64,000 nucleotides of DNA. Origin: an uncultured bacterium (lineage in GTDB: Bacteria > Muiribacteriota > UBA6191). A program made the translations under genes and the position numbers. The stretch covers positions 5,844 through 69,843 of the forward strand of contig CAZDAM010000003.1 in NCBI GenBank assembly GCA_964503595.1, given 5' to 3'. Below, in pieces: positions 3,927 to 37,757 of the stretch (within the stretch, counting starts at the first letter, position 1; every line of letters begins with the position of its first letter). Below the pieces are notes generated by a model that was not told the origin of the DNA, did not search any database, and was given only the letters and a program-made list of their open reading frames with translations.

Positions 3927-5680
3927 GTGATCTCAAGCTTTTATGGCCCTATCTCAAGCGTTACTGGCCAGCCATGGTGGCCTCCCTGATTGGGGCTGCG
4001 ATTGTGGCTTTGGCAACCACTGCCAATGCCGAGGTTCTCAAGCACCTTCTGGATAAGGTGCTGGTTCCACCGGATGCCGGAGATATCCAGGCCTACTATG
4101 CCTCCCAGGAAGCCAATCTCCTGTGGGTGACGGTCATGGCCGTGGTGGTGACTCTGACCAAAGGTGGGGGAGATTTTCTGAAGTCCTACAGCCTAAGCTG
4201 GGTTCAGCAGAAGGCTGTCATGAATCTGCGCAAGGACTTTTTCTGTCACCTGCAGTCCTTGCCCATGAGGTTTTTTGCCACTTCCCGTACCGGGGATCTG
4301 ATTTCCAGGCTGAATGCGGACATCATGGCGATTGAGAACCTGTTTCGTCAGTGCATCAACTCTTTGGCTGAGCCACTGGTCATTCTCTGCCTGATTTCCT
4401 ATATGTTCTGGGTGCAGTGGAAGCTTGCTCTCCTGATTTTTGTGATTGTCCCGATTCTTGGAGTCGTGGTCCGGGCACTTTCCGTACGGTTGAGAAGGGC
4501 TGGAGAGCGTCTTCAGGCCAAAGCCGGAGATATTTCCGCCCTGGTTCAGGAAACTGTCACGGGGATTCGGATTATCAAGGCCTTTGGCTTTGAGAAGCGC
4601 CGCGAAGACTTCTTTGAGACTGAGCTTCAGGCCGGTTTCGGCCACTCCATGAAGGCGGTCAAGTATACGGCCCTGACCAGTCCGGCGGTAGAATTTGCAG
4701 ATTCCATCGGGGTTGCCCTGATGCTCTATCTGGGTTCCAAATCCGTAATTGATGGAGTCATCAGCCCTGGGCAGCTGATTGCTTTTCTGACCTGTCTGGG
4801 GCTTCTGTTTCAGCCGCTCAAAAAAATCACTCAGGCGAATGCGCAGATTCAGGCCTCCCTTGGAGCCATTCGCCGTGTTTTTGAAATTCTGGAAGAGCCC
4901 AGGGAAATCGATTCTGGAACCCGAACAGTGGCAGATCCTTCCGGTGGGGTCATCCTGAATTTTGACAATATCTGCTTTGCCTATTCCGATGATAAGCCGG
5001 TTCTCAAACAGTTGACCTTTGAAGCTAGACCGGGCGAAACCATTGCCCTCGTTGGACCTTCGGGGGCTGGAAAAACCACGGTTCTGGGCCTTTTGCCCCG
5101 CTTTATCCGGGAGGGGTCCGGTAAAATTCTGATCAACGGAGAAGAGGCAGACTCCTATTCTTTGAAGTCTTTACGTTCCATCATGGGAATTGTACCTCAG
5201 GAAGTCGTCCTTTTTTCCGGAACGATTGCGGACAATGTGCGCATGGGTCGTCCAGAAGCAACGGATGAAGAGGTACGTGAGGCCTGTCGTATGGCCAATG
5301 CTCATGAATTCATCGAAAAACTTCCTGAAGAGTACAATTCAAGAGTCGCGGAAATGGGAGTTGGTCTGAGTGGAGGGCAGAGGCAGAGAATCGCCATTGC
5401 CAGAGCCCTGTTAAGGGATCCCGCCCTGCTTTTACTGGATGAAGCGACCTCGGCCCTGGATTCTCAATCCGAAACTCTCGTGCAGGAATCCTTGAAAACC
5501 CTTATGAAGGGGCGTACAACATTGGTAGTCGCTCATCGGATTACGACCATTCGTGATGCGGACAGAATTTTAGTGATGGAACAGGGACAGCTGATTGATT
5601 CGGGAAGGCATGAAGAGCTTTTAGGCCGCTGCTCTCTATATGCAGAGCTTTGCCGGGGACTGAGTGAGGCATGCCCATGA
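3923..5680 (+). CDS. msbA: ABC transporter permease/ATPase, lipid A flippase MsbA-like
   Basis: Six-TM N-domain, Walker A 'GPSGAGKTT', ABC signature 'LSGGQRQRIAIARAL' and Walker B 'LLLDEATSALD'. Embedded between lpx genes. Confidence 0.8.
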   Translation: MSDLKLLWPYLKRYWPAMVASLIGAAIVALATTANAEVLKHLLDKVLVPPDAGDIQAYYASQEANLLWVTVMAVVVTLTKGGGDFLKSYSLSWVQQKAVMNLRKDFFCHLQSLPMRFFATSRTGDLISRLNADIMAIENLFRQCINSLAEPLVILCLISYMFWVQWKLALLIFVIVPILGVVVRALSVRLRRAGERLQAKAGDISALVQETVTGIRIIKAFGFEKRREDFFETELQAGFGHSMKAVKYTALTSPAVEFADSIGVALMLYLGSKSVIDGVISPGQLIAFLTCLGLLFQPLKKITQANAQIQASLGAIRRVFEILEEPREIDSGTRTVADPSGGVILNFDNICFAYSDDKPVLKQLTFEARPGETIALVGPSGAGKTTVLGLLPRFIREGSGKILINGEEADSYSLKSLRSIMGIVPQEVVLFSGTIADNVRMGRPEATDEEVREACRMANAHEFIEKLPEEYNSRVAEMGVGLSGGQRQRIAIARALLRDPALLLLDEATSALDSQSETLVQESLKTLMKGRTTLVVAHRITTIRDADRILVMEQGQLIDSGRHEELLGRCSLYAELCRGLSEACP

Positions 5681-6840
5681 CGAAGCGTGTCTTTGTTTCT
5701 GCCGGAGAGTATTCGGGAAGTCTTTACATGGCTTCCATCTTAAGGCGTTTCCACGAGCTTCATCCGGAAGTGAAGTTTTTTGGGGTTGGTGGCAGTGAAA
5801 TGCAGGAAGCCGGGGTGGAGCTTCTCTACAATTCGGATTCCTGGGGTTCGATTGGTCTGGTTGAGGCTGTCAAGCGCTGGCGCCTGATTCCGGTTAATTT
5901 TCATCTGCGCAGGATTCTGGAAAAAGAGAAGCCGGATCTGCTGCTTCTGGCGGATTATCCGGGCTTCAATATGCCCCTGGTCCGTAAAGGTCAGGGACTT
6001 GGTATCAAAAGCGTTTATCTGTTCCCGCCCCGTAAATTTGCCCGTCGGGCCGAAGATGTTGCGGAAGCAGCCAAAGCCATCACCAGAGTCGCGGCAGAGT
6101 TTGAGCCGACTTATACGGCCTATCTGAAGGCTGGAGCCCAGGTGGATTTTGTCGGCCACCCCATGCTTGATATTCTGCCGCGGGAAGATCGGTACATGCT
6201 TAGGGAAAAGAATGGAATTCAGGCAGATGAAAAACTGGTTCTTGTCATGCCAGGAAGCCGGGCCCAGGAAGTTTCCATGCTCTTGCCCGAGTTTGCCGGA
6301 ACCCTGCCCCTGATTCATTCTAAAGTTCCAAAAGTCCGCTTTGTGATGCTGGGTGCCTCCAATTTTGAGAAGGACTCCTGCATTTGCGAATGTCTCAAGG
6401 CTTTTTGTGAGCGCCAGAGACAAGCGGGTCTTAATATTGAACTGGTCTTTGAAAACCGTTTTCACTGGATGCAGCAGGCTGACTTTGCCCTGGTGAGCTC
6501 AGGAACGGCGACAATGGAACTTCTTGTTTATGGGGTTCCCATGATCATCTGCTACAGGGTTTCTCTTTTGACCGAAGTTCTGGCCCGCGCTCTGACCCGC
6601 GAACTTCCGGACAATATCGGGCTTCCCAATCTTCTGGCCGGAAAGCGGATTGTGCCGGAATTCATTCAGCGTCAGGCAACTCCTGAGGTCATGGCCAAGG
6701 CTGCAATCGAACTTTTATTGAGCCAGGAGATTCAGGATCAGATGCGCCTGGAGTTTGAGGATATTCGGGCCAAACTGGGTGGAACGGGGAGTATCGATCG
6801 TTTGTGCCGGGTACTGGCAGAAGAGCTTGGCTTGCGTTAG
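5671..6840 (+). CDS. lpxB: Second lipid-A-disaccharide synthase paralog (LpxB family, GT19)
   Basis: 'VFVSAGEYSGSLYMASIL', 'DYPGFNMPL', 'MPGSRAQEV' and 'SSGTATMELL' match the same LpxB motif set as the 2790 gene, but the sequence is divergent. Confidence 0.7.
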   Translation: MPMTKRVFVSAGEYSGSLYMASILRRFHELHPEVKFFGVGGSEMQEAGVELLYNSDSWGSIGLVEAVKRWRLIPVNFHLRRILEKEKPDLLLLADYPGFNMPLVRKGQGLGIKSVYLFPPRKFARRAEDVAEAAKAITRVAAEFEPTYTAYLKAGAQVDFVGHPMLDILPREDRYMLREKNGIQADEKLVLVMPGSRAQEVSMLLPEFAGTLPLIHSKVPKVRFVMLGASNFEKDSCICECLKAFCERQRQAGLNIELVFENRFHWMQQADFALVSSGTATMELLVYGVPMIICYRVSLLTEVLARALTRELPDNIGLPNLLAGKRIVPEFIQRQATPEVMAKAAIELLLSQEIQDQMRLEFEDIRAKLGGTGSIDRLCRVLAEELGLR

Positions 6841-12196: not shown

Positions 12197-12226
12197 TTGA
12201 TGAAATACACATGATGTGTGTATAAT
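12197..12226 (+). promoter_or_regulatory. Sigma70-like promoter for hicAB with a palindromic operator in the spacer
   Basis: TTGATG (12197-12202), 18-nt spacer, TATAAT (12221-12226). The spacer contains the perfect inverted repeat acacat-g-atgtgt. Confidence 0.5.
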
Positions 12227-12236
12227 AAAAAGGGGC

Positions 12237-12425
12237 ATGAATAGTCGCGAAATCATCAGAATCCTGAAAAAAGCTGGCTGGTACAGGGTTGAGTCTAATG
12301 GTAGTCACCATCAGTTTAAGCATCCTATGAAGCCCGGGCGTGTGACTGTGCCACACCCAAACAAGGACGTGCCAGTGGGAACTCTGAGAAGCATTGAAAA
12401 ACAGTCAGGGGTAAAGTTTCGGTAG
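12237..12425 (+). CDS. hicA: HicA family mRNA interferase toxin
   Basis: 62-aa 'MNSREIIRILKKAGWYRVESNGSHHQFKH...' is typical HicA. Followed within 10 nt by a HicB-like gene. Confidence 0.8.
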   Translation: MNSREIIRILKKAGWYRVESNGSHHQFKHPMKPGRVTVPHPNKDVPVGTLRSIEKQSGVKFR

Positions 12426-12434
12426 GAGGAGTTC

Positions 12435-12830
12435 ATGAAAATCTATTTTGCTCTAATCCACAAAGAAGAAGACTCTGATTATGGGGTTTCGTTTCCAGAT
12501 TTGCCGGGATGTATTTCGGTTGGCTCTAGTATGCAGGAAGCTTTGAAGATGGCAGAAGAAGCTTTGGCCCTTCATATCAAAGGCATAACAGAGGACGGGG
12601 AGAAAATTCCCGAACCATCTTCCGTAGAAAATATTGCAAGAGATAATGGGGATGCGATAGCGATTGTGGGGATTCCGCATAACCCAATGACCCTGGAAAC
12701 CAAGAGAATCAATATCACGATCCGGCAGGATATTCTTAATGAGATTGATGCTGCCGCAGAGCTTGCCGGAATGAGCCGTTCAGGTTTTCTTGCTTTTTGC
12801 GCCCAGAATCAGATTCAAGGCAAAATATAA
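12435..12830 (+). CDS. hicB: HicB family antitoxin (RNase H-like fold plus C-terminal DNA-binding region)
   Basis: 'MKIYFALIHKEEDSDYGVSFPDLPGCISVGSSMQEALKMAEEALALHI' matches the HicB N-domain. Paired with hicA. Confidence 0.75.
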   Translation: MKIYFALIHKEEDSDYGVSFPDLPGCISVGSSMQEALKMAEEALALHIKGITEDGEKIPEPSSVENIARDNGDAIAIVGIPHNPMTLETKRINITIRQDILNEIDAAAELAGMSRSGFLAFCAQNQIQGKI

Positions 12831-12918
12831 GAATGTCATGGTTCCGGTTTAGAGTTGAGAAGTATCCAAAAGATATAGGCTCCTGTCCAAGGCTTCCCGA
12901 AAATGCTAAGGTTCTGGC

Positions 12919-13380
12919 ATGGAAGAACAAAAGAAACCCTCGTATAAAGCAACTTATATTGCCTGGTTCGGCATTCTGACGAATGAGGCCATCTATCTTC
13001 TGGTCCTGGTTGTTCTGGCTTTCAGTGAAAGCAATTTCCAGGATATTTCCCTTGAAGCTTTGCAATCCTGGCAGGGCTTTGGTGATGTGGGTCAATCGGA
13101 AGTTTTTCTTCCTGTACTTGTTGGTCTGGGTGTGGTTTCCCTCCTTTTGACAGGGGCCTTGCATATCTTCGCCGAGCGCCTGATCGGGGAATGCAGCACT
13201 CCGGAGGAGTTGAGCCGCAAGGTGCTGATTGCCTGCGCGGTCGCATCCATTCCAGCGAACATGGGCCTGGTAATGGCATTGCTGGGTGGAAAAATCCTCT
13301 GGGTGATTCCGTTTTTTGTGCTGACCTTTTACGGAAAGCTGAAGTTCTTTCCCGGTTTTTATCTGCCGAAAAGTGCCTGA
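12919..13380 (+). CDS. Small integral membrane protein, unknown function
   Basis: 153 aa with 3-4 hydrophobic helices; good coding look. Confidence 0.45.
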   Translation: MEEQKKPSYKATYIAWFGILTNEAIYLLVLVVLAFSESNFQDISLEALQSWQGFGDVGQSEVFLPVLVGLGVVSLLLTGALHIFAERLIGECSTPEELSRKVLIACAVASIPANMGLVMALLGGKILWVIPFFVLTFYGKLKFFPGFYLPKSA

Positions 13381-13401
13381 AATGCTAAAATTTCAGGAAG
13401 T

Positions 13402-13812
13402 ATGCGGAATTCTCTTCTGAAAAATCCGGTTTTGCTCCTCCTCCTTCTGGGTTCCCTGTTTTTACGACTGGGGCTTGTTCCACTTGTGGGGGAGGGCTAT
13501 TCCCGCTGCCTGAAATCTGCCGTGCAGAAGGATTGCTGTGAAGGAGGGGGTTTTGAAGACTGTGTTTCTTCGCATGCTCATCATGAGTTTCACCCGGAGG
13601 ACAAGAGTTGCCTTGATCTTCCGTTCTGGGCCGAAGCTGAAGCCAGAGAGTTTCACGTTTCTGGTCTTGATGAAGCTCCCTTGGACTTTTCTTTCCGCCA
13701 GCTCCTGGATTTTCCCCTTGGAGTTTCTTTTGGAAGGCTTGTGCCAAGGGGCCCACCTGATGAGGGGAAATCCTCCCTCTGGCAGTTTCAGACTGTCCGC
13801 CTGCTCATTTAG
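13402..13812 (+). CDS. Secreted Cys/His-rich small protein (putative periplasmic metal-binding protein)
   Basis: Signal peptide (LLLLLLGSLFL), 'CCEGGGFEDC', 'SSHAHHEFHPED'. Confidence 0.4.
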   Translation: MRNSLLKNPVLLLLLLGSLFLRLGLVPLVGEGYSRCLKSAVQKDCCEGGGFEDCVSSHAHHEFHPEDKSCLDLPFWAEAEAREFHVSGLDEAPLDFSFRQLLDFPLGVSFGRLVPRGPPDEGKSSLWQFQTVRLLI

Positions 13813-13894
13813 ATCAGTACAGAGTTTAGCTTTTTGCCAACAATGTACTGACTGACCGGCTCTGGTCCGGTTCCTTATCGAAAATGAGTGGTTC

Positions 13895-14212
13895 ATGAAA
13901 AATTTTCTTCCCGTTCTTGTGATTGTTCTGGCTGGTTTTGCAGCCTGGTTTGTTCCCATGTCTTCGAGTGTGCAGGCTTCAGAGGTCTGTTCGGTTCATC
14001 ATGTTAAGGAGTGTCCTTTCTGCAATCAGGAGCTTGCCCTTAAAAAGGGGATCTGCAAAGAGCATAAAGCTGCTGGCAAGGATATTCCTGAAGCTCTTTG
14101 TTACCTGTGCAACAAGGAACTGAAAAAAGTCTTTATTCAGGAAAAGGACTGGTGCAAAGGCCATTCTGTTCCTGAATCCCAGTGTACGACCTGCCTGATT
14201 CACGGTCACTGA
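13895..14212 (+). CDS. Secreted Cys/His-rich small protein with three CxxC pairs (putative periplasmic metallochaperone)
   Basis: Signal peptide 'MKNFLPVLVIVLAGFAAWFVPMSSSVQA', then 'ECPFCN', 'CYLCN', 'CTTCLIHGH'. Immediately upstream of the RND adaptor gene. Confidence 0.5.
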   Translation: MKNFLPVLVIVLAGFAAWFVPMSSSVQASEVCSVHHVKECPFCNQELALKKGICKEHKAAGKDIPEALCYLCNKELKKVFIQEKDWCKGHSVPESQCTTCLIHGH

Positions 14213-14224
14213 TTCGGAGACAGC

Positions 14225-15463
14225 ATGAAAAACGCCCTGACAATTTTCGGGGCCATGCTGGTCTTTCTGGGAGTTCGTTATATCAAGACTTCCAGAGGGC
14301 CGGAAATGGTTCCTCCTGTACAGAAAACAGAAGAAAATTCCTATGTAAAAATTCCATCGATTGCACCTTTGAGGGCCCGTCGCTCGGAAAGAAAACCAAA
14401 CCCTGACTGTACCCGTGCCATGCAGGTAGTAAGGATTGAGGATCCCGATCTGATCCCAGAGCGCCTTCAGACAATTCTGATTTCCAGTGGGGATTTTTCG
14501 ATTCAAAGATCCTATCCGGCAGAACTGGATTTTTTGCCCAGCAGGCTCAGGCTGATGACAGCTCGCACTGCTTTGACGGTTCTGAATCTCTTTGTGACGG
14601 ATGGAGAGGAAGTTCTAAGTGGTGATGCCCTGCTTGAAGCGGAAAGCCGCGAACTCGCGGATGCCCAGTCAGCCTGGCTGAAGGCCCAAAGAGCCCTTGA
14701 AGTCCAGAAGGAATCTCTTTTTAGAGAAGAAGAGCTGCTCAAGTCCAGTGTGGGTAATCAGAGGGATCTGAGTCAGGCCAGACGGGACTTCATTCAGACC
14801 CAGTTGAACCTGGAGATTGCCGGGCAGAAGCTGGCCTGGTTTGGCTATCAGAAAGAAGAATACGAAGAGCTTGAGAAGCGGCGAACTGTGGATGCCCGCT
14901 TTGTACTGAGGGCAGCTTCACCGGGGAGGGTTCATTCCCTTGAAGTTGTTGTGGGAACCCATGTTGAAGAAGGGCACAATCTGTTAAAAATTGCGGATTC
15001 CTCCCGCTTGAGGGCTCGCATCTGGGTGCCTGTTGGTCAGGCTGACTCCTTTCATAAAGGTCAGCGCTTTGTGGTTCAAAGCCAGAATCGTCAGACCGAA
15101 GGCAGGATTACCGCTGTGCCCTCATTTCTGGACTCCCATACACGCCAGATTGCCGTTTGGGGTGAGTTTGAGAATCAGGATTTTCTCGCCGGAGAATTTG
15201 TAACCGCCGAACTTCAGGAAGAGCTGAAAAACCGGGTTGCGGTTCCTCTTGGGGCCATTCAGTGGGATGGTTGCTGCAATCTGGTCTTTGAGAAAATCGG
15301 GGAGGGTGAATTCCAGCCCCACAAGGTTGTGCTTTATGAGCGGGGGGATTACAAGCAGGTGGTTTCCGGTCTTCAGGAAGGCATGGAAATTGTGACAGAC
15401 GGCGCTTTTGTTCTCAAATCCATTCTGATGCAGTCAGAAATGGGTGATGCCTGCTGCGGGTAG
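14225..15463 (+). CDS. Efflux RND periplasmic adaptor (membrane fusion protein, CzcB/CusB-like)
   Basis: N-terminal TM anchor, coiled-coil hairpin, beta-barrel region, C-terminal 'MQSEMGDACCG'. A 4-nt gap to the downstream CzcA-type pump. Confidence 0.75.
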   Translation: MKNALTIFGAMLVFLGVRYIKTSRGPEMVPPVQKTEENSYVKIPSIAPLRARRSERKPNPDCTRAMQVVRIEDPDLIPERLQTILISSGDFSIQRSYPAELDFLPSRLRLMTARTALTVLNLFVTDGEEVLSGDALLEAESRELADAQSAWLKAQRALEVQKESLFREEELLKSSVGNQRDLSQARRDFIQTQLNLEIAGQKLAWFGYQKEEYEELEKRRTVDARFVLRAASPGRVHSLEVVVGTHVEEGHNLLKIADSSRLRARIWVPVGQADSFHKGQRFVVQSQNRQTEGRITAVPSFLDSHTRQIAVWGEFENQDFLAGEFVTAELQEELKNRVAVPLGAIQWDGCCNLVFEKIGEGEFQPHKVVLYERGDYKQVVSGLQEGMEIVTDGAFVLKSILMQSEMGDACCG

Positions 15464-15466
15464 ATT

Positions 15467-18400
15467 ATGAAGCGCCTGATAGATTTTTCCCTGAAACAGA
15501 AAGCCGCTGTCGTCGTGATTGCTCTTCTGATTATGCTCATGGGGGTTCATTCGGCCCTGAATCTTCCTCTGGACGCCTTTCCGGATACGACACCGGTTAT
15601 GGTCCATGTCAATGCTGAGGCTGAGGGGCTTGGGCCCCTGGAAATTGAAGAGCAGATTCTAAGACCCCTCGAAAGAACCCTGCTGGCCACAGCAGGAGTT
15701 TGGGAAATCAGATCTCTGGCCCGTTTCGGCTTTGGCCAGATCATTCTGATTTTTACGGATGGCACAAAACTCATGCATGCCCGTCAGTCAGTCCTGGAGC
15801 GGTTGAATGGATTTCAACTGGTGGATGGTCTGGCTCCCCCTGAGCTTGGACCACCAGCAACTGGAATGGGCGAGGTTTTCCATTACACCTTAAGTTCTCC
15901 AATCCGGGATTTGAAGAGTCTGATGGATCTTCAGCGTTATGAGCTTGAACCCCGCTTGGCTTCTGTTTCAGGAGTCGCCGAGATCAATGCCTGGGGAGGC
16001 CTTCTGAGGCGGGCTGAAGTTCTTGTGGATCTCAAGAAACTTAGAAAATACGACCTGCGTCTGAAGGATGTCTTTGAGGCGATTCGGAGCCAGGTATCTG
16101 CCCGGGGAGGGGGTGGAATTGCTCTTGGAGGGGAATATCACCTGATCCAGGGTGATACCCGGTATCGAAAACTGGAAGACATTGAGAACGCGGTTGTGAG
16201 CACGGTTGAAGGTATTCCAGTTCTGGTTTCAGATATTGGCCAGGTGATCGACGGGCATGCCCTCAGAAGGGGGGCGGTTTCCATGAACGCAGAGGGAGAG
16301 GTATTGCTTGGACTGGGTTTCATGAGCTTCGAACAGAATGGCCGTGAAGTCAGCAGGGGGTTGGAACAGGCCCTGGAAAGTGCCCGCGATATTCTTCCGG
16401 AAGATGTGAGTACCCAGGTGATTTATTCCAGAGAAACCATCGTGAATGCGGTCTTGCAGACAGCCGGGAGCAATCTGGTTTTTGGTTCAGCTCTGGTATT
16501 TGTCGTTCTTCTGGTGTTTCTGGGAGATCTTCGTGCCGGGTTGATTGTGGCTTTGAGCATGCCCTTCTGTCTTCTGTTTGCCTTCTGTGGAATGAGGGTT
16601 ATCGGGATTCCGGGAACCCTGATGTCACTGGGGGCCATTGATTTTGGGCTGGTGGTGGACTCCAGTGTGATTCTGGTGGAAAACACCTGGCGAAGGCTCA
16701 GGGGAAAACAGGATTGCAATCGGGATGAAACTGTTTCTGAAGCTTCCATGGAAATGCGTCAGGCAACCATCTTCGGAGAGCTGATTCTGATTCTGACCTA
16801 TCTGCCCATTCTCTTTATGGCCGGGGCAGAAGGAAAGCTTTTCAGGCCCATGGCAATCACCATCATGCTGGCATTGGCGGGTTCTTTTCTGTGGTCGATC
16901 TTCATTGTCCCGGTACTTTCCTCCTGGTTTTTGAAGCCCGGGGTTCAGAAAGAAGCCCGTTTTTTGAAACCGCTCAAAATCCTTTACCTGTACTGTCTCA
17001 AGAGTCTTCTTCCCCGCAGGAAAATAGCTGTTGCCTGTGCTTTTCTTGCCCTTATCGGTGGCGGCTTTATGGCATCCCGGTTGGGAGCACGTTACCTGCC
17101 CAGACTGGAAGAAAATACTCTGGTGCTGTCTACAGTAAGAATGCCGGGAATTTCTCTTGAGGAGAATCTGGTGCAGTCGCGGGATCTGGAAGCATATCTG
17201 CTCAGGCGTTTTCCCCATGAAATTCGGGCAGTTTTAACCCGGATAGGGTCGGCCGAACTGGCTACGGATCCCATGGGTCTGGAGCAGGCCGATGTCTTTT
17301 TGGATCTTTTTGATAAAAAGCATTGGAAAAGGGCTCACTCTCAGGTAGAGCTTCAGGAGCTTGTCCGCAGTGAACTGGAGTCTTTTCCGGGCATTAAAAT
17401 CGTGATGACTCAGCCCATTGAAATGAGAATGAATGAGATGGAGGCGGGGATTCGTTCCGATGTGGGGATTCTGATCTATGGAGAAAACTTTCAGGAGTTG
17501 GCCCAAAGAGCATTGGAAGTGGAAGCTCTGGTCAAGACATTGCCGGATGCAGTGGATGTCAGCGCCGAAAAAATCACCGGTGGACCGATGGTAAGAATTC
17601 AGGCCCATCCTTCAGAGCTTGGACGTTATGGTCTGATGGGGGAAGATGTTCTGAATCTGGTGGAAGCGATCGGAGGAGTTCCGGTGAATCTTCTGATACA
17701 GGGAGAAAAGCGCTATGACGTTGTAGTTCGACTGCCTGAAGAGATGCGCCAGGATCCCGAGAAACTCGGGGGTTTGCAGTTGATGACAGAGGCTGGAGGC
17801 CAGATTCGCCTGGATGCTGTTTCTGATGTTGTCATGGAAGATGGGCCAGTGCTGATTTCCCGGGAAAGAACCCGCAGAAGAGTTGTCGTACAAGCTTCTG
17901 TAGCTCATTCGGATGTGGGCGGTTTTGTTACAAGACTCAAGGAACAGCTGGAGCGCTCCCTGGAGTGGAATACGGGGCTTTCCTTTGAGCTTGGAGGTCA
18001 GTTTCGCCATTACGAAAGTGCCCGCAGGGGATTGGTTTTCAGTATTTCCCTGACACTGATTCTGATTTTTTTTCTGCTTCAGGCCAGCACAGGAAATCTT
18101 CGGGATACCTTCTGCATCATGAGCGGGGCTCCGTTCGCTGCTCTTGGAGGTATTCTGGCCCTTTCCCTTATGAATCTTCCCTTTTCGATTTCAGCAGGAG
18201 TCGGTTTTGTGATTGTCTGCGGAGTTTCCATGCTCAATGGCCTGGTGATGATTTCCACTCTTAGAAGAAGAGAAAGGAAATTCCTGAATCGCAGCCTGAT
18301 TCTGGCGGCACTGGAACGCTTGCAGCCGGTTTTGATGACGGCTCTGGTAGCATTCTTCGGGTTTCTTCCGATGGTTTTCAGCAGTGGGATCGGTGCAGAA

Positions 18401-18511
18401 ATTCAGCGACCTCTGGCGGTAGTGGTTGCCGGTGGGGTCATTTCGGATACCTTGCTGACTCTGCTCATTTTGCCCTGTCTTCTGGGGCTTTTTCACAAGG
18501 AGGTGGAATGA
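15467..18511 (+). CDS. czcA: Heavy-metal efflux RND transporter (CzcA/CusA family, HME-RND)
   Basis: 1014 aa, 12-TM RND topology with two large periplasmic loops. HME-type conserved blocks 'AIDFGLVVDSSVILVEN' and 'GAPFAALGGILAL'. Confidence 0.8.
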   Translation: MKRLIDFSLKQKAAVVVIALLIMLMGVHSALNLPLDAFPDTTPVMVHVNAEAEGLGPLEIEEQILRPLERTLLATAGVWEIRSLARFGFGQIILIFTDGTKLMHARQSVLERLNGFQLVDGLAPPELGPPATGMGEVFHYTLSSPIRDLKSLMDLQRYELEPRLASVSGVAEINAWGGLLRRAEVLVDLKKLRKYDLRLKDVFEAIRSQVSARGGGGIALGGEYHLIQGDTRYRKLEDIENAVVSTVEGIPVLVSDIGQVIDGHALRRGAVSMNAEGEVLLGLGFMSFEQNGREVSRGLEQALESARDILPEDVSTQVIYSRETIVNAVLQTAGSNLVFGSALVFVVLLVFLGDLRAGLIVALSMPFCLLFAFCGMRVIGIPGTLMSLGAIDFGLVVDSSVILVENTWRRLRGKQDCNRDETVSEASMEMRQATIFGELILILTYLPILFMAGAEGKLFRPMAITIMLALAGSFLWSIFIVPVLSSWFLKPGVQKEARFLKPLKILYLYCLKSLLPRRKIAVACAFLALIGGGFMASRLGARYLPRLEENTLVLSTVRMPGISLEENLVQSRDLEAYLLRRFPHEIRAVLTRIGSAELATDPMGLEQADVFLDLFDKKHWKRAHSQVELQELVRSELESFPGIKIVMTQPIEMRMNEMEAGIRSDVGILIYGENFQELAQRALEVEALVKTLPDAVDVSAEKITGGPMVRIQAHPSELGRYGLMGEDVLNLVEAIGGVPVNLLIQGEKRYDVVVRLPEEMRQDPEKLGGLQLMTEAGGQIRLDAVSDVVMEDGPVLISRERTRRRVVVQASVAHSDVGGFVTRLKEQLERSLEWNTGLSFELGGQFRHYESARRGLVFSISLTLILIFFLLQASTGNLRDTFCIMSGAPFAALGGILALSLMNLPFSISAGVGFVIVCGVSMLNGLVMISTLRRRERKFLNRSLILAALERLQPVLMTALVAFFGFLPMVFSSGIGAEIQRPLAVVVAGGVISDTLLTLLILPCLLGLFHKEVE

Positions 18512-19374
18512 AAGGAAAATTCTTCTGGATGCAGGCTTTCGAGGCCCATCCCTTCAGCGGAAACCCCTGTCCGGTCTACCTGTTGCCAAAGCCTCTCGAA
18601 GAGGTCAGGATGCTGGCGATTGCAAAAGAAATGAATCAGTCGGAAACGGCTTTTGTCCATCGGGAAAAGGGCAGGATTCATGCCCGCTATTTTACCTGCC
18701 TGGAGGAAATTCCCATGGCTGGACACCCGACTCTCTGCACGGCTAAAGCCCTGGTAGAAGCGGGCTGGGTTGAGGCCGGGAGCCGCATAGGGCTTCATCT
18801 GCCGGCAGGTGTCTATTTCTGTGGAGCTGATCAGAATGAGGCTTACATGGAGCAGGAGCCGATTGCTTCCGGAAACCGGCTCTCAAAGGAGTCTGCCGCG
18901 GAGTTGGGAGGCCTGAATGCGGATGATTTCTTTGCTCCTCCCCAGATTTTCAGCACCGGGACTCCGATGCTGATGGTTCCTCTAAAGCCGGGAAGGCTTG
19001 CCGGGATTCATTTGAACCGGGAGGTCCTGACCCGTTTGAAAGCCGAGATGGACTTTTTCTCCGTGCATTTTTTTGAGTGGGATGAAGAGAATCGGATCAC
19101 CCAGGCTCGTCATCTTGGTCATGATGGAGAGGATTCCTTCACCGGTTCGGCAACCGGAGCCATGGCAGCCTGGCTGGCAGCTCATGGTTATGTGAAGGAT
19201 AGATTTACCGCCCTTCAGGGGGAGTTTGTGGGTCGCGAAGGCCGGGCCGATGTAAAAATTCTATCGGATTCCATCAGAATCCAGGGCAGGGTTCGTACTC
19301 TGGTTTCGGGGGAATTCAACCTTGACGGTTTGTCAGGTGAATCAGAAGCATCCCGCAGATCATTCCAGCCATAA
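18508..19374 (+). CDS. PhzF family phenazine-biosynthesis-like isomerase
   Basis: 'MQAFEAHPFSGNPCPVYLL' and 'NQSETAFV' are PhzF/YddE hallmarks. Start overlaps the czcA stop; the true start may be ATG at 18529. Confidence 0.65.
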   Translation: MKGKFFWMQAFEAHPFSGNPCPVYLLPKPLEEVRMLAIAKEMNQSETAFVHREKGRIHARYFTCLEEIPMAGHPTLCTAKALVEAGWVEAGSRIGLHLPAGVYFCGADQNEAYMEQEPIASGNRLSKESAAELGGLNADDFFAPPQIFSTGTPMLMVPLKPGRLAGIHLNREVLTRLKAEMDFFSVHFFEWDEENRITQARHLGHDGEDSFTGSATGAMAAWLAAHGYVKDRFTALQGEFVGREGRADVKILSDSIRIQGRVRTLVSGEFNLDGLSGESEASRRSFQP

Positions 19375-19729
19375 CCGTGAGGGATGGAATCTGAAGGGTT
19401 CCTGTTGAGACAATGGCAGGTCCGGGACAATAGCCGCCAAGACCCCATCCCATGCCAAAGAGGATGGCTCCAAGAATCAGTCTGGAATCAATCCGACTTG
19501 CCGTGGGCAGATGGAATTTCACATCGCAGACCGGACGGCTGCGCTTTTTGGTGAGATGCCATAGGGGAGTATTGATCAGAAGGGCTCCACCCATGACGAA
19601 GGCAAGAGTCGGATCCCACTGGCCGAAAATATCCAGAAAGCCAATGACCCGATCTGGTCGGACCATACCGGAGACAATCAGTCCTGAGGCAAAAAGAAGG
19701 GCGCTGAAAACCGTGATGAGAAGCTGCAT
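19316..19729 (-). CDS. YeeE/YedE family membrane protein (sulfur-compound transporter component, half-size)
   Basis: 'GWGLGGYCPG' motif with 4 TM segments. Adjacent to a second YeeE/YedE half. Confidence 0.65.
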   Translation of the reverse strand: MQLLITVFSALLFASGLIVSGMVRPDRVIGFLDIFGQWDPTLAFVMGGALLINTPLWHLTKKRSRPVCDVKFHLPTASRIDSRLILGAILFGMGWGLGGYCPGPAIVSTGTLQIPSLTVMAGMICGMLLIHLTNRQG

Positions 19730-19730
19730 G

Positions 19731-20156
19731 TCAGACTCCCTGCATGATAAACATGCGCACAAGGGTTGCGGTGATCATTCCTGAAGCCATGAAGGTGAGA
19801 ACGGCGGCAATGGAACGGGGTGAGAACCGGGCCAGACCACAGATACCGTGTCCGGAGGTACAGCCGCTTCCAAGGCGGGTTCCTGCGCCGACCAGAACAC
19901 CTGCGGCAAAGAGATGTATCAGATTTCTGCCGGTGTCGGCGGATTGAAAGAACTCGGGTCTGATCTGATGAACCAGTAGTCCTGTGAGCAGGATGACAGT
20001 CAGAAACAGGAGACTGGGCATGCGGTTGTCCCCCCTGGAAAACAGGGAGCCCATCATTCCGGAAACACCCAGAATACGGCCACGTCCAAACATCATGAGA
20101 GCGGCGGAAAGCCCAATAAGAATTCCTCCGATTAGACCAAGAATCCAGGGGTGCAT
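19731..20156 (-). CDS. YeeE/YedE family membrane protein (second half-size paralog)
   Basis: 'GSGCTSGHGICG' motif characteristic of the YeeE/YedE thiosulfate/sulfur transporter family. Confidence 0.65.
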   Translation of the reverse strand: MHPWILGLIGGILIGLSAALMMFGRGRILGVSGMMGSLFSRGDNRMPSLLFLTVILLTGLLVHQIRPEFFQSADTGRNLIHLFAAGVLVGAGTRLGSGCTSGHGICGLARFSPRSIAAVLTFMASGMITATLVRMFIMQGV

Positions 20157-20167
20157 ATCTGATCTCC

Positions 20168-20908
20168 TTATAGCTGAATGATCTGGATGAAGGTAATGAG
20201 AGAAGCCATCGCGAGCAGGATGGCGAGAAGCTTTCTGAGGATGGTTTCAGGAATCTTGCCCGCAAGCATGCGGCCAGTGAAAGCTCCCAGAAGACAAAGC
20301 AGAATCAGTTCGATGGAGGGGTGAAGCAATGGAGTCAGAGTTTGCATCCATCCGAAAAGACCCGCGGTGGAATTCATGCCAATGATCAGAAGGGAAGTCG
20401 AAGAGGCAATGTGGGCAGGGAGAGAATTCAGGCTCATCAGAACAGGTACGGCCAGAAATCCTCCTCCGACTCCGGCGATTCCGGTGAGAATTCCGACGCC
20501 GAATGCTCCCGGCAGGAACCATTTTTTCCGGTTTGTGGCTGAGGAGGAAGGGGCAGAAAACATTTTGAAGGAAGCATAGCCAGCCGCAGTCCCGAAAATG
20601 GCGAGACGCATAGAGTCCGGGAATTCAGATCCGAGCTTTCCTCCCAGGGCTGCTCCAGTCATGGAAGGAGGCATGAACATGAGTGCTGCCTTCAGATCGA
20701 GCTTACCATCGAGCCAGGCTTCAAAAGCACCCCCAAAGCTGGCAATGCCAACAATGAGAAGGCTGTAGACAACGGCTTCAGCGGAATTCATTCCGGCCAG
20801 GGTGAGAATTGGAATGGCCAGAATGGAGCCGCCTCCACCGGTAAGTCCAAGCAGTATGCCGGCACCAAAGATCCCGAATCCGGCATATGTCAGACTGATT
20901 TCGCTCAT
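20168..20908 (-). CDS. TauE/SafE family sulfite/organosulfonate exporter (DUF81)
   Basis: Gly-rich TM repeats 'GILLGLTGGGGSILAIPIL' and 'GIAGVGGGFLAVPVLM' are typical of TauE/SafE. Confidence 0.7.
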   Translation of the reverse strand: MSEISLTYAGFGIFGAGILLGLTGGGGSILAIPILTLAGMNSAEAVVYSLLIVGIASFGGAFEAWLDGKLDLKAALMFMPPSMTGAALGGKLGSEFPDSMRLAIFGTAAGYASFKMFSAPSSSATNRKKWFLPGAFGVGILTGIAGVGGGFLAVPVLMSLNSLPAHIASSTSLLIIGMNSTAGLFGWMQTLTPLLHPSIELILLCLLGAFTGRMLAGKIPETILRKLLAILLAMASLITFIQIIQL

Positions 20909-21594
20909 TTCTCGCCTTCAAGTCCGCAAACAAGGTTGGCAGGGACAGATTCCCTGATTTTTTTGGGCTGGGCCAGATTGAGGTTGGCCATGAACTGAAC
21001 AAAACCGTCCTCACTGAGTGTCAGGCGTGGATTCAGCTTTTTCTCCTGTCCAACTGTGGAGCTGGTATGGCCTTTGTAATCGTGGGCCGGGTAGATCCGT
21101 GTTCCTTCGGGTAGAGTGAAAATCTTGCTGTGCACGGACTGATAGAGCCTGTGGCTGTCTCCCTGCTGGAAATCCGTACGGCCACAGCCCCGAATCAGCA
21201 GGGCATCTCCGGTAAAGACCATATCTTCGCAGGCATAGCTCATGCAGCTGTTGGTATGTCCGGGAGTCATCAGTCCCCGGATTTTATGTTTCCCGAAAGA
21301 AAGTTCCTCTTCATCCTTTAAAAGAATGTCTGCAAGCTCCACCCCACTGGCGTGGCTCAGAACAATTTTAGCTCCGGTTTTCTGGCGGATGTGACCTGAG
21401 GCGGTGATGTGATCAGCGTGAACATGGGTGTCCAGGATATAAAGAAGCCGGATGCCGAGTTCATCGATCAGTTTGAGATCCCTCTCCATGGTTTCACGAA
21501 CGGGGTCGATCAGAATGCCTTCCAGGGTTGTTTCGTCTGCGAGCAGGTAGGTATAGGTGGATGATTCGTGTTCAAACAGCTGATGGAAGATCAT
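20905..21594 (-). CDS. MBL-fold metallo-hydrolase, persulfide dioxygenase (ETHE1/Blh)-like
   Basis: 'LDTHVHADHITASG' (HxHxDH) metal site, about 229 aa. Co-located with TauE and YeeE as in sulfur-detox clusters. Confidence 0.65.
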   Translation of the reverse strand: MIFHQLFEHESSTYTYLLADETTLEGILIDPVRETMERDLKLIDELGIRLLYILDTHVHADHITASGHIRQKTGAKIVLSHASGVELADILLKDEEELSFGKHKIRGLMTPGHTNSCMSYACEDMVFTGDALLIRGCGRTDFQQGDSHRLYQSVHSKIFTLPEGTRIYPAHDYKGHTSSTVGQEKKLNPRLTLSEDGFVQFMANLNLAQPKKIRESVPANLVCGLEGEK

Positions 21595-21700
21595 GGGAGT
21601 CTCCTTTTTACCCGGTTTTCATTCTGATTCTGCCACAGCCAGGAAGGAGGCAATATGACCGGGATCAGGATTTGAATTTTTTTTTCATGAAAATCCAGGA

Positions 21701-21728
21701 TTGACATCTGGGAATTGGGTCTTAGGAT
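21701..21728 (+). promoter_or_regulatory. Putative promoter of the S1 protease gene
   Basis: TTGACA at 21701-21706, 16-nt spacer, TAGGAT. RBS ggaaagga upstream of the ATG at 21758. Confidence 0.3.
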
Positions 21729-21757
21729 TTCGGGAAATTCTAGGAAAGGATTACCTG

Positions 21758-22624
21758 ATGCGTAAACTTGCTGTGTCTTTGATGGTGGCTTTCTCTGCCG
21801 CTGTTCCTTCTTTTGCTGATTCGGAAGCTCTTGCTCCTACACTTGAAGGCTCTCTGCGCCATAGTGGGGCAATTTCCCGCATGAACCGTATTGTCGGCGG
21901 TGTCGAAGCCCAAAAGGGAGAATGGCCTTTTATCGTAGGTCTGATCCAGAAAGGCAAGCCCACTTATGATGGTCAGTTCTGTGGCGGCTCCCTGATTGCT
22001 CCCCAATGGGTTCTGACTGCTGCCCACTGTGTAAAAAGTGGCAACAACACGGCAAGTCCCCGTTCCATGGAAGTCTATCTGAATGGTCATGATTTGACCG
22101 ACGATTCTTCCGGATACCGGGTGAATGTGTCCAAGGTCATTCCGCATTCCCGCTACAATGAGAACAATATGGACAATGATATTGCTCTTCTGAAGCTGTC
22201 CCGCCCGGTGACGGATGTCACTCCTGCTCCTATTCTGGAAAGAGGCAGCCGCCTGGACGCTCCTCCTTATGTTTCCCGGGTCATGGGCTGGGGCAATATG
22301 AAGGAACAGGGCAGCAACTTCCCGGCGAAGCTTCAGAAAGTCGATGTGCCTTTTGTCGATCGCCAGACCTGTGATCGGGCGATTGGGAATCTGGTGAACC
22401 AATCCGGAATCATCAGTGCCAATATGCTTTGTGCCGGTTTTTCCCAGGGTGGCAAAGATAGCTGCCAGGGCGATTCCGGAGGTCCACTGGCAGTTCAGGA
22501 TGGCAACACCTGGAAACAGGCTGGGGTTGTCAGCTGGGGAATCGGCTGTGCCCGCCCGAATGCCTATGGAGTTTACACCCGTGTGCAGAACTATCACGGC
22601 TGGATAGAATCCCAGATGCGCTGA
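21758..22624 (+). CDS. Secreted trypsin-like serine protease (chymotrypsin fold, S1A) with zymogen-type propeptide
   Basis: Signal peptide, 'NR|IVGGVEA' activation junction, 'CGGSLIAPQWVLTAAHC' (His57), 'DIALLKLS' (Asp102), 'DSCQGDSGGPL' (Asp189 and Ser195). Confidence 0.85.
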   Translation: MRKLAVSLMVAFSAAVPSFADSEALAPTLEGSLRHSGAISRMNRIVGGVEAQKGEWPFIVGLIQKGKPTYDGQFCGGSLIAPQWVLTAAHCVKSGNNTASPRSMEVYLNGHDLTDDSSGYRVNVSKVIPHSRYNENNMDNDIALLKLSRPVTDVTPAPILERGSRLDAPPYVSRVMGWGNMKEQGSNFPAKLQKVDVPFVDRQTCDRAIGNLVNQSGIISANMLCAGFSQGGKDSCQGDSGGPLAVQDGNTWKQAGVVSWGIGCARPNAYGVYTRVQNYHGWIESQMR

Positions 22625-22646
22625 TTGCCATCAGAAAGCAGAAGGT

Positions 22647-22674
22647 AAAAGCCCCGCTTCGGCGGGGTTTTTTC
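22647..22674. terminator. Bidirectional intrinsic terminator (GC stem with UUCG tetraloop, flanked by an A-run and a T-run)
   Basis: aaaa-gccccgc-ttcg-gcggggc... -tttttt lies between the convergent protease (+) and acr3 (-) genes. Confidence 0.7.
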
Positions 22675-22677
22675 ATG

Positions 22678-23682
22678 TCAGGAAAAACGGTGACGGGTGC
22701 GGTTGGCAATGGCTACCAGGGAAAGCATGACAGGGACTTCGACGAGTACCCCGACCACGGTGGCAAGGGCAGCACCGGAGTGGAGTCCGAAAAGGGAAAT
22801 GGCGACGGCCACAGCCAGTTCAAAGAAATTGGATGTCCCGATCAGACAGGCTGGAGCAGCAATCGAGTGGGGCAGTTTCATTTTCCAGGCTGCCAGATAG
22901 GAGATTGCGAAGATGCCGTAGGTCTGAAGAGTCAGGGGAATGGCAATCAGCAGAATGATGAAGGGTTCCTTAAGAATGGTTTCTGCCTTGAAACCAAACA
23001 GAAGAATGACGGTGAGGAGAAGCCCGATGATGGAAAAGGGTTTGAGTTTCACAAGCAGGTTTTCAAGCTTTGGAGCAGGCAGGGCCTTTCGGGTGAGAAC
23101 TCCGGCAATCAGGGGCAGAACCACATAAAGCAAGATGGAAATCAGAAGCGTTTCCCAGGGGACCTGGATATCACTGACGCCAAGCAGAAATGCCGAGATG
23201 GGGGCAAAGGCAAAGACCATGATCAGATCGTTTACCGAAACCTGAACCAGGGTGTAGTTGGGATCTCCCTTGGTGAGCTGACTCCAGACAAAGACCATGG
23301 CGGTACAGGGAGCCACCCCTAAGAGGATCATCCCGGCAATGTATTCCTGGGCTTTGTGGGCCTCTACCCAGGAGCTGAAAAGAACCCGGAAGAACAGCCA
23401 GCCCAGAAAGGCCATGGTAAAGGGCTTGATCAGCCAGTTTACGATCAGGGTCAGGGCGAGTCCTTTGGGCTTTTTCTTTATGTCCCGGATAGCGCTGAAA
23501 TCAATCTGAATCATCATGGGATAGATCATGAGCCAGATCAGAACCGCAACAATCAGATTAACGTGAGCAAATTCGAGAGAGGCGATTTTCTGGAATCCAT
23601 CAGGCGAGAGAATGCCCAGAAGCACTCCAAGTCCAATGCTTAGCGCTACCCAGATGGATAGATATCTTTCAAAGAGTCCCAT
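22678..23682 (-). CDS. acr3: Arsenite efflux transporter, ACR3 family
   Basis: '[23 protein letters not shown]...' is an ACR3-type N-terminus with 10 TM segments. In an operon with arsC and arsR. Confidence 0.8.
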
Positions 23683-24154
23683 ATTCTTTCTGCTCCTCCA
23701 GATTTTCAAGGACCTGAATTCTGGCTTCATGTGACAAAAGGGCTACTTCACAAAGTTGCCCGACTCTTTTCTGAATCATGTCGATCACTCTTTCAAATGC
23801 CTGATCGATTTCTTCCGGGCTACCCTGAATCCGGGATGGGTCAGGCAGCTCCCAATGAATTTTTAACCCATTGCGAAGAACCAGTGGGCAGGATTCCCGG
23901 GCAGCCTGATCACAGACTGTGATGATGGCGTCGAATTCCTGGTTTTCAAAATCATCCCAGGACTGACTTTTCAGACTCTGGGTGGGAATGCCAAGAGCTC
24001 TCAGGTGTTTCAAGGTCAGTGGATGGACTTCTCCACTTGGTTGAGAGCCTGCGCTGAAGGCCTGGATGAGACCCTTTCCACAGTGATTGGTCAGGGCCTC
24101 GGACAGAATGCTGCGACAGCGGTTATGGGTACAGACGTAAAGGATTTTCAGCAT
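23669..24154 (-). CDS. arsC: Arsenate reductase ArsC (LMW-PTP family, thioredoxin-coupled)
   Basis: '[21 protein letters not shown]' is the CX5R P-loop of LMW-PTP ArsC. 161 aa. Confidence 0.85.
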
Positions 24155-24498: not shown

Positions 24499-24504
24499 AT
24501 GCGA

Positions 24505-24535
24505 AATATCGTATATATGAAAAATCGTATATGAT
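24505..24535. promoter_or_regulatory. AT-rich tandem direct repeats (atcgtatat x2) in the arsR/chrA divergent promoter region; candidate ArsR operator
   Basis: 'aaatATCGTATATatgaaaaATCGTATATgatc' lies immediately upstream of the arsR start at 24498. Confidence 0.3.
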
Positions 24536-37753: not shown

Positions 37754-37757
37754 TTCG

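Follow-up and report, generated by a model that had tools for sequence, protein, structure and literature searches.

The stretch of DNA analysed here, called the window throughout, comprises 64,000 nucleotides (64 kb) of contig CAZDAM010000003.1 (positions 5,844 to 69,843 of the forward strand; assembly GCA_964503595.1) from an uncultured bacterium of the Muiribacteriota (UBA6191). The system in question is a run of genes on its + strand in which two small, Cys/His-rich open reading frames (ORFs), ORF1 and ORF2, precede the periplasmic adaptor and the pump of a heavy-metal efflux system of the resistance-nodulation-division type (HME-RND). The explanation that we favour, and that we hold as a whole with slightly better than even confidence, is that the region represents a metal-efflux operon of the divalent-cation CzcBA/ZneBA type, in which a further small gene, ORF0, may or may not have a part. 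The genes are the following:

12919-13380, + strand: ORF0, 153 residues with four hydrophobic segments; ends 21 nt 5' of ORF1
13402-13812, + strand: ORF1, 136 residues; small exported-looking Cys/His protein
13895-14212, + strand: ORF2, 105 residues; signal peptide followed by one three-knuckle Cys3His module
14225-15463, + strand: adaptor, 412 residues; periplasmic, ZneB/CzcB-like, with its own membrane anchor, the N-terminal module being absent
15467-18511, + strand: pump, 1014 residues; HME-RND inner-membrane protein, closest to ZneA

All five are arranged head to tail, with successive gaps of 21, 82, 12 and 3 nt, and the start of a PhzF-family isomerase gene (18508-19374, +) overlaps the pump stop codon (ATGA, 4 nt). 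This last gene is probably co-transcribed with the efflux genes, for a reason that is not obvious, and ORF0 may be co-transcribed with ORF1. ORF0 has no match in Pfam or NCBIfam, and its homologues come from the same species only. An 18-nt inverted repeat (13366-13407; 78% complementary, 6-nt loop) covers the ORF0 stop together with the ribosome-binding site and start of ORF1, and may couple the translation of the two.

Selection was measured against the Logan contig L001, which is 95% identical over window positions 12848-15073. The ratio of nonsynonymous to synonymous substitution rates (dN/dS) was 0.15 for ORF0, 0.18 for ORF1, 0.07 for ORF2 and 0.14 for the adaptor, and third codon positions took up 19 of the 31 substitutions in ORF1 and 11 of the 13 in ORF2. 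Because of this third-position bias and the low dN/dS, ORF1 and ORF2 are real genes under purifying selection and not chance ORFs; both were also found again, unchanged, on short contigs of two further samples. By inspection, each of the three exported proteins has a single N-terminal hydrophobic segment (residues 5-30 in ORF1, 1-24 in ORF2, 3-20 in the adaptor), and the predicted ORF2 cleavage site between VQA and SE fits the -3/-1 rule. An earlier note on this DNA had singled out the two small ORFs as secreted proteins rich in Cys and His, and in this respect it proved accurate: every motif is present where it had been placed, with CCEGGGFEDC at residues 45-54 and HAHHEFH at residues 58-64 of ORF1, and with CPFC, CYLC, CTTC and a terminal HGH in ORF2, while the hydrophobic segments agree with the signal peptides assigned to both. 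Its concern that the small ORFs might turn out not to be conserved in related genomes is met by the purifying selection and, for ORF2, by a family with 212 representatives.

The identity of ORF2 follows from the part of the protein behind the signal peptide, which carries this feature:

13988-14194, + strand: module of three Cys3His units, ORF2 residues 32-100

The candidate ligands are C32/H35/C40/C43, C54/H57/C69/C72 and C87/H90/C97/C100, and the module spacing reads C-x2-H-x4-C-x2-C, C-x2-H-x5-C-x2-C and W-C-x2-H-x-x-P-E-S-x-C-x2-C. In an alignment of 110 modules of about 70 residues each, the nine Cys and three His are each conserved to 95-100%. ORF2 has the expected residue in all 12 ligand columns and, since all 12 positions are conserved to at least 95%, its Cys/His content is not a matter of chance; peculiar to it are a five-residue insert (KAAGK) in unit 2 and an LIHGH tail. 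Individual proteins contain between one and eight knuckle units, and single units sit isolated between low-complexity linkers, so that each C-x2-H-x6-C-x2-C unit is, judged by its sequence, an autonomous four-ligand site. In the rare modules in which C40 is replaced, Asp mostly takes its place, a residue that can ligate metal and cannot form a disulfide. From the conservation of the ligand positions and from this Cys-to-Asp replacement, we predict that the module binds metal through its Cys3His sites.

An exhaustive HMMER search with ORF2 returned 212 cluster representatives at E<=1e-3, 66 of them at E<=1e-10, and the E-values ranged from 7e-36 to 1e-10 against 65 representatives; a word-indexed search had found only a near-identical copy, and the family surfaced in the exhaustive search alone. 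With no fewer than 212 cluster representatives and over 500 metagenome loci, it extends across Planctomycetota, Omnitrophota, Riflebacteria and others. In public records, the free-standing forms are named 'hypothetical protein' and the fused forms 'efflux RND transporter periplasmic adaptor subunit'. Neither sequence searches nor a fold comparison with the AlphaFold2 (AF2) model gave a match of the module in Pfam, NCBIfam or the PDB, and ORF2 has no Pfam match of any kind, including CusF (PF11604). The AF2 model of ORF2 (predicted local distance difference test score, pLDDT, 87.6; predicted template modelling score, pTM, 0.70) is compact and consists of short helices and loops. On the strength of these profile matches, ORF2 is not an isolated oddity but falls into a large, unnamed family of domains, and it can confidently be assigned as a free-standing copy of a conserved Cys3His-knuckle module of this adaptor class.

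The connection to the adaptor comes from 90 loci including the window, whose contexts were examined by ORF calling and with hidden Markov models (HMMs) built for this analysis, and which comprise 80 metagenome loci retrieved with the module as well as the contigs of three free-standing homologues. In all 90, the module is either fused to an HME-RND adaptor or encoded beside one, and the pump follows; for ORF2, this gives the co-occurrence with HME-RND operons that the earlier note had asked about, in loci most of which were retrieved by way of the module. The module is only fused in 46 loci, is present both fused and as a separate ORF in 18, and is split off as in the window in 13. The usual order is outer-membrane factor, a module ORF in some cases, the adaptor with or without a fused module and then the pump, sometimes followed by a cation diffusion facilitator (CDF) transporter. 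A Pfam scan of eight full-length relatives identified all of them as HlyD_D23 adaptors of the CusB/CzcB type with an N-terminal module, the module region itself remaining uncovered, and most of the long matches in the wider list terminate in the C-terminal Cys motif of the adaptor. A search seeded with the adaptor instead yielded one relative (L002, from an Omnitrophota metagenome-assembled genome), in which the module is likewise fused to the adaptor. In the window, ORF2 ends 12 nt before the start of an adaptor that has the C-terminal DACCG tail, and it is thereby adjacent to an adaptor of the expected kind. Most relatives carry this module in one polypeptide with the adaptor, and ORF2 is for this reason very probably a partner that binds metal for the adaptor in the periplasm; most likely, it represents a detached metal-binding arm of the adaptor, which would resemble CusF in role and not in fold.

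We also considered that ORF2 and the adaptor might have arisen by a recent frameshift within a fused gene, but rejected this, as both have their own N-terminal hydrophobic segments and the split recurs in 13 loci. In one copy of the closest related operon (L006, 5016-6993), a 659-residue fused adaptor is split into ORFs of 156 and 496 residues, owing either to a frameshift in sequencing or to recent fission; the case shows how an arrangement like that of the window could arise. A locus from a cultured organism is found on plasmid pK2D_1 (L092; CP036351.1, 1-13273) of the Planctomycetes bacterium K2D, where a metal-resistance island contains, in this order, czcC, a hypothetical protein of 137 residues that resembles the type B leaders described below, czcB with knuckle units and GCC motifs, czcA, a 120-residue lipoprotein with two knuckle units, a gene for an HMA protein, cadA, trxA and czcD.

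The adaptor matches HlyD_D23 (PF16576) at 1.4e-23 (83.8 bits, cut-off 30) and is identified as an RND periplasmic adaptor by TIGR01730 (102.9 bits, cut-off 94.9). With 110.5 bits, it stays below the cut-off of 319.3 for the CzcB/NccB subfamily TIGR00999 and is hence not assigned to it. The closest solved relative is ZneB (3lnn; 3e-19). Three positions with family-specific Cys residues stand out:

14408-14410, + strand: adaptor Cys62, at the start of the conserved core; Cys in 72% of 58 family adaptors, the rest mostly alignment gaps
15272-15277, + strand: adaptor Cys350-Cys351 in 'QWDGCCN'; family motif QW[DE]GCC; Cys in 64% and 72%
15452-15457, + strand: adaptor Cys410-Cys411 in 'DACCG'; family consensus 'IGAGCCE'; Cys in 98% and 90%

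The terminal pair, to which the earlier note had already pointed, is hence a conserved feature of the family. ZneB has 'SGFYT' in place of the DGCC region, and all five family-specific Cys are either absent from ZneB or, as with the C-terminal CC tail, lie beyond the region that aligns with it.

The pump belongs to the CusA/CzcA family by TIGR00914 (880.6 bits over residues 2-1012, cut-off 701.45), matches ACR_tran at 1.4e-233 and is closer to the Zn(II) pump ZneA (4k0e; 571.6 bits, 3e-170) than to CusA (466 bits). Its fourth transmembrane segment (TM4) carries the following motif:

16634-16684, + strand: TM4 motif AIDFGLVVDSSVILVEN of the pump, of the form DFG...D...EN

The pattern DFG-x3-D-x2-x3-EN in TM4 is one that we take to mark the divalent-cation type of HME-RND pumps in the Nies classification. 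By this motif, in which residues 3-4 are SS instead of GA, and by its closer relationship to ZneA, the pump is of the divalent-cation type. It keeps the equivalents of E136 and D602 of ZneA, whereas D654 is replaced by Met and E599 by Leu. CDF transporters lie 3' of the pump in two related loci (L003 and L039), and on pK2D_1 the same parts lie beside an HMA protein, cadA, trxA and czcD. Ten related operons (L007, L008/L009, L013, L016, L023, L025, L028, L029, L032 and L039) are headed, upstream of the outer-membrane-factor gene, by ArsR/SmtB regulators with the thiolate motif E[LC]CVCD; the sole ArsR-like ORF of the window (24151-24534, -) belongs to an ars cluster instead. Taken together, the pump type, the CDF neighbours, the ArsR/SmtB motifs and the neighbours on pK2D_1 point to thiophilic divalent ions of the Zn/Cd type as the probable substrate.

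No outer-membrane factor is encoded with the pump in the window: the ten large ORFs gave no Pfam match to OEP (PF02321), and an HMM derived from the outer-membrane factors of related operons (44 sequences) reached a best E-value of only 4.9 in six frames of the 64 kb. The lack of czcC or cusC, which the earlier note had reported, is therefore confirmed but is not unusual, since 17-19 of about 58 assessable related loci are alike in this respect. The outer-membrane factor lies immediately upstream in 39 related loci and is missing in these 17-19 despite at least 1.5 kb of upstream DNA, with 32 loci not assessable; the missing adjacent factor is accordingly real but ordinary for the family, and the channel is probably encoded elsewhere in the genome. 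Two paralogues of LpxB (lipid-A-disaccharide synthase; 378 and 389 residues) flank an ATP-binding cassette (ABC) exporter with an ABC_membrane domain at 2790-6840 (+). Since these lipid-A genes are present, the organism has an outer membrane. It is very improbable that the adaptor and pump merely move metal into the periplasm, with ORF1 and ORF2 sequestering it there and no channel involved: the missing factor in the window and in the related loci just mentioned would fit, but 39 loci have the factor directly upstream of the same parts, lipid A is made, and a protein of 77 residues that sequesters metal stoichiometrically would confer little resistance. There are also well-known cases, such as TolC of E. 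coli, of an outer-membrane factor whose gene lies apart from those of its pump.

ORF1 is a protein of a different kind. Its features, with the RNA structure predicted at its 3' end, are:

13507-13611, + strand: ORF1 Cys/His cluster, residues 36-70 (C36, C45, C46, C54, H58, H60, H61, H64 and C70)
13744-13758, + strand: ORF1 'PRGPP', residues 115-119, 49 residues past C70
13799-13892, + strand: predicted RNA structure in which the last ORF1 codons (13799-13810) pair with AAAUGAGUGGU (13882-13892)

Of the 51 related loci whose upstream DNA is long enough, 34 have, at the operon head, a small ORF with a hydrophobic N-terminal segment and four or more Cys, and in 24 of these 34 there is also a PP or RAGP motif near the C-terminus. 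Two patterns are conspicuous among these ORFs. Type A leaders contain 'CCPDGCxxCxxPCC' and end in '[VI]F[RH]PPR[AS]', and type B leaders read 'hC[IL]xxxG', 'CC', 'C[ILV]D[ILV]P', then PP, RGPP or RAGP, and 'TVLxI-COOH'. The spacer from the Cys cluster to the proline motif measures mostly 42 residues in type A and 49-56 residues in the ORF1-like type B. ORF1 reproduces the type B motif order (C36, DCC45-46, C70-LDLP, RGPP116-119, TVRLLI-COOH), its Cys-to-PP distance of 49 residues compares with 49-56 in type B relatives (with PP, RGPP or RAGP), and its operon position agrees with theirs; its cluster, which includes the 'DCC' and 'CLDLP' motifs, is the sole stretch that aligns to the type B profile. 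The PP (residues 118-119 of 136) lies 17-18 residues from the C-terminus and is followed by a hydrophobic tail.

Type A ORFs were found in L012 (7163-7672), L014 (1518-2183), L019 (814-1251), L021 (2215-2679), L025 (2184-2624), L027 (1857-2276), L037 (5934-6389), L046 (6230-6685), L051 (62-511) and L089 (766-1170), with the end motif [VI]F[RH]PPR[AS] placed 2-5 codons ahead of the stop. The distance from the last clustered Cys to PP is exactly 42 residues in 10 of 14 (41-46 in the rest), with a spacer identity of only 11%, which gives the spacer the look of a molecular ruler, for a nascent chain that reaches through both the ribosome tunnel and the translocon. The type B ORFs of L045 (594-1094) and L047 (5146-5652) carry 'WARAGP' about 20 residues ahead of the C-terminus, which we take to resemble the RAGP core of the SecM arrest motif; at the equivalent place, L063 and ORF1 of the window have RGPP. 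Of ten leader ORFs from related loci that were scanned against family models, nine gave no family at E<=1 and not one matched DUF2946. If functionally related to CutF and CzcI, the leader ORFs would constitute new families. One further candidate identity of ORF1, a degenerate fragment of an outer-membrane factor, was rejected, since purifying selection acts on ORF1 and no part of the window is recognised by the HMM for these factors.

The RNA helix between ORF1 and ORF2 would enclose an inner hairpin (13814-13851) and mask AAAUGAGUGGU, the presumed ribosome-binding region of ORF2. Its minimum free energy is -31.7 kcal/mol (z -2.74; 1 of 200 shuffles equally stable), and base-pair probabilities reach 0.8-1.0 in folding windows of up to 260 nt, with alternative pairings that also mask the region. 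The helix was found as inverted repeat I4 as well, and three substitutions in L001 keep the helices intact.

From these resemblances, and not from significant homology, we regard ORF1 as probably a leader or sensor of the CzcI/CutF kind. The earlier note had grouped the two small proteins together as possible metallochaperones, analogous to CusF or CzcI, or sensors. Of this proposal, the metal-binding role in the periplasm probably holds for ORF2. The CusF analogy does not hold, as neither ORF is related to CusF by sequence or predicted fold and neither matches DUF2946, and the two are not of one kind, ORF2 being a detached adaptor module and ORF1 a leader-type protein, for which the motifs and the gene position make a sensor role more likely than that of a chaperone.

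The mechanism that we envisage starts with ORF2, i.e. the usual N-terminal extension of the adaptor, here a separate secreted protein with three autonomous Cys3His knuckles. Each knuckle would bind one thiophilic metal ion (Zn(II)- or Cd(II)-like) in the periplasm, ligand exchange would then move the metal to Cys62 of the adaptor, to the DGCC pair and to the flexible C-terminal CC tail, and from there it would enter the ZneA-like pump. ORF1 would sense periplasmic metal and tune downstream expression, as proposed for CzcI and shown for CutF, and the outer-membrane channel would be supplied from elsewhere in the genome. Direct observation covers the gene order, the purifying selection, the place of ORF2 in the module family, the fused or adjacent position of module and adaptor, the conserved Cys and the lack of an outer-membrane factor in the window, whereas metal binding, the identity of the metal, the hand-off route and the sensor role of ORF1 are all steps that we infer. 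That these operons define an undescribed thiolate-based class of heavy-metal RND systems, with Cys3His capture, a relay over vicinal Cys and co-translational leader sensing with a fixed spacer, we put forward only tentatively, as a possibility with the odds rather against it.

Several observations weigh against this explanation. Cys residues in the oxidising periplasm are often disulfide-bonded and do not form metal sites. The loci were chosen by way of the module, so that its linkage to adaptors is partly built in and L002 is the only unbiased case. Across 33 family pumps there is no conserved Cys, and a purely thiolate relay must therefore end at carboxylate or His sites. With regard to ORF1, protein searches gave no significant homologue outside its own species: word-indexed searches with ORF1, and with an alignment of ORF1 and P0152, returned same-species sequences or seeds only, and a tblastn search of plasmids with ORF1 found no match. 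No Pfam family matched ORF1 at E<=1, DUF2946 (PF11162) included, nor did any NCBIfam model, and its AF2 model, resting on a shallow alignment, is uninformative (pLDDT 43). Homology to the type B leaders is consequently not established, as the type B HMM scores ORF1 at E=0.44, among the noise of 4413 ORFs, and hhalign assigned it a probability of 36% with nine sequences (P 4e-4) and of 8% with twelve (P 4e-3). As to the RNA, the ribosome-binding region of ORF2 stays paired in the predictions even when the 3' end of ORF1 is held open, and it was not released by a ribosome modelled at RGPP or at the stop codon of ORF1. The predicted helix is 50 nt downstream of the RGPP codons, and a ribosome that stalled at the PP, 17 residues ahead of the stop, would fall short of it. 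Folding models of this kind thus do not demonstrate a CutF-style unmasking of the ORF2 ribosome-binding site in cis.

It is conceivable, though on our estimate rather unlikely, that ORF1 is no leader but a stable periplasmic or membrane-anchored metal-binding protein, i.e. a chaperone or buffer similar to CusF or CopK that acts in trans. The Cys/His cluster with its nine potential ligands would suit such a function, as would the 17 residues including a hydrophobic tail after PP, which are unlike classical arrest peptides; the type B-like protein on pK2D_1 is encoded between czcC and czcB and lacks the PP motif, and the RNA unmasking model is equivocal. However, no confident fold is predicted for ORF1, albeit from a shallow alignment, and it has evolved very fast outside the motifs while the spacing has been kept, which is typical of leader peptides and not of folded chaperones. 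Its position at the head of the operon also matches proteins of the CutF/CzcI type, and we therefore retain the sensor role as the more probable one.

Less probable again is that the ORF2 module has a purely structural function or mediates interactions, with structural Zn or disulfides maintaining its fold. It would then bind no substrate metal but act as a spacer, or as a docking piece by which the adaptor assembles more readily with the pump, the outer-membrane channel or the cell wall. A structural role is the typical one for small Cys/His knuckles, a number of units between one and eight would suit a spacer, the AF2 model is compact and confident, and the pump has no conserved Cys to accept a thiolate-bound ion. 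Set against this, the module is found only with metal-efflux adaptors, and these have gained conserved vicinal Cys pairs, one of them on a flexible tail. Regulators and neighbours in related loci point to the handling of soft metals, and a docking piece would hardly be expected so often as a separate secreted protein.

We consider it improbable, to a still greater degree, that ORF2 and the adaptor Cys form a periplasmic metal switch, in which binding alters the conformation or assembly of the adaptor hexamer and thereby activates the pump. For both ZneB and CusB, changes of conformation that depend on metal have been described, which favours such a switch, and three high-affinity Cys3His sites would fit sensing better than fast turnover. 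The beta-barrel domain of ZneB is moreover involved in ligand binding (PMC8277102). Sequence does not separate a switch from a relay, but several tandem modules are not obviously needed for the former, and the relay through ORF2 and the adaptor to the pump remains the reading that we prefer.

Beyond the operon, a HicA-like toxin (69 residues) and a HicB-like antitoxin (131 residues), judged as such from their sequences, are encoded directly 5' of ORF0 (12216-12830, +). The sole strong sigma-70-like promoter match of the region (12197-12226) precedes this pair; no promoter was predicted directly 5' of ORF0 or ORF1, and no convincing terminator within the operon. Downstream of the pump lies a detoxification neighbourhood (19316-25712), in which an ArsR-like ORF and a chromate transporter were confirmed by tools, while two YeeE/YedE-like membrane proteins, a TauE-like permease, an MBL-fold hydrolase, an ACR3 arsenite carrier and an ArsC of the low-molecular-weight phosphatase type were recognised by translation only. 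A second, unrelated adaptor-like gene is located in 35792-41753 (-); it encodes 615 residues with GAF and HlyD_D23/HlyD_3 domains and is accompanied by genes for a 714-residue peptidase M50-domain protein and a 653-residue SecA-like protein.

An accessory metal-binding protein and a leader sensor for an HME-RND pump are, as such, a known concept. The module, the Cys-bearing adaptor subfamily and the leader classes, by contrast, are undescribed as far as our searches of the open-access literature reach, and these found no described Cys-rich domain of RND adaptors. Characterised heavy-metal RND systems handle periplasmic metal with methionine (Cus) or with carboxylate and histidine (Czc, Zne) chemistry. 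The proposed role of ORF2 is the same as that of CusF in CusCFBA of E. coli, where a small periplasmic metal-binding protein is likewise encoded beside the adaptor CusB in an HME-RND operon. CusF, however, is an OB-fold protein that binds metal via Met, His and Trp and is not known to contain Cys, whereas ORF2 has nine Cys and three His and no fold match in the PDB, and the pump is similar to ZneA and not to CusA. In the Cus system, the metal passes from CusF to CusB and then to CusA (PMC8277102).

A parallel to the variable architecture of the module, with 46 fused, 18 fused plus separate and 13 split arrangements, is an accessory metal domain that can likewise be fused or separate. SilB of Cupriavidus metallidurans is an adaptor with a fused, CusF-like C-terminal domain, while the module described here is N-terminal, has up to eight repeats and is of the Cys3His type. 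ZneB and ZneA are the closest solved relatives, and the pump shares the TM4 motif and the equivalents of E136 and D602 with ZneA; ZneB, on the other hand, is without the DGCC pair, and the adaptor of the window stays under the TIGR00999 cut-off for CzcB/NccB. The thiol relay of the mer system consists of MerP, a CC pair in MerT and the C-terminal CC tail of MerA, whose vicinal Cys pass on a soft metal by ligand exchange. The C-terminal CC tail and the DGCC pair of the adaptor could act in the same way, although there is no sequence relationship, and mer imports Hg(II) for reduction whereas the system discussed here exports its metal.

Concerning the leader, proteins of the CutF kind begin with a signal peptide and contain a motif of Cys and His that is separated by about 45 residues from a C-terminal proline motif. 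Their genes most often lie upstream of OEP/RND efflux genes, and CutF itself detects periplasmic Cu while it is still a growing chain on the ribosome, which unmasks the ribosome-binding site of the following gene (PMC9973294). The same work counts CzcI, encoded upstream of czcCBA, as a CutF relative that lacks the proline motif (PMC9973294). ORF1 and the type A and B leaders resemble CutF, CzcI and DUF2946 proteins in having fewer than 150 residues, a signal peptide, a Cys/His motif, a proline motif and a fixed spacing. As the published rule demands, ORF1 is also located on the same strand directly upstream of the RND genes, with 136 residues and a gap of 82 nt to ORF2, but its PP stands 17-18 residues from the end and not within the last 15 that the rule requires (PMC9973294). 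Its putative metal cluster is of the form CC/C/H4/C and not CxxxC.

If the knuckle sites carry substrate, the model of metal transfer from chaperone to adaptor to pump would be extended to thiolate ligand exchange, and this would hint at how bacteria of sediment and groundwater handle metals of the Cd/Zn/Pb type. The split arrangement in the window offers an experimental handle, as the module is available as a 77-residue protein on its own, and the Planctomycetes bacterium K2D is a cultured organism in which it could be studied. The leader ORFs further provide many testable candidates for co-translational sensing of the CutF type, among which the type A set with its 42-residue spacer is the clearest. 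The module also merits a domain model, with which hundreds of 'hypothetical proteins' could be annotated together with so far unexplained adaptor extensions.

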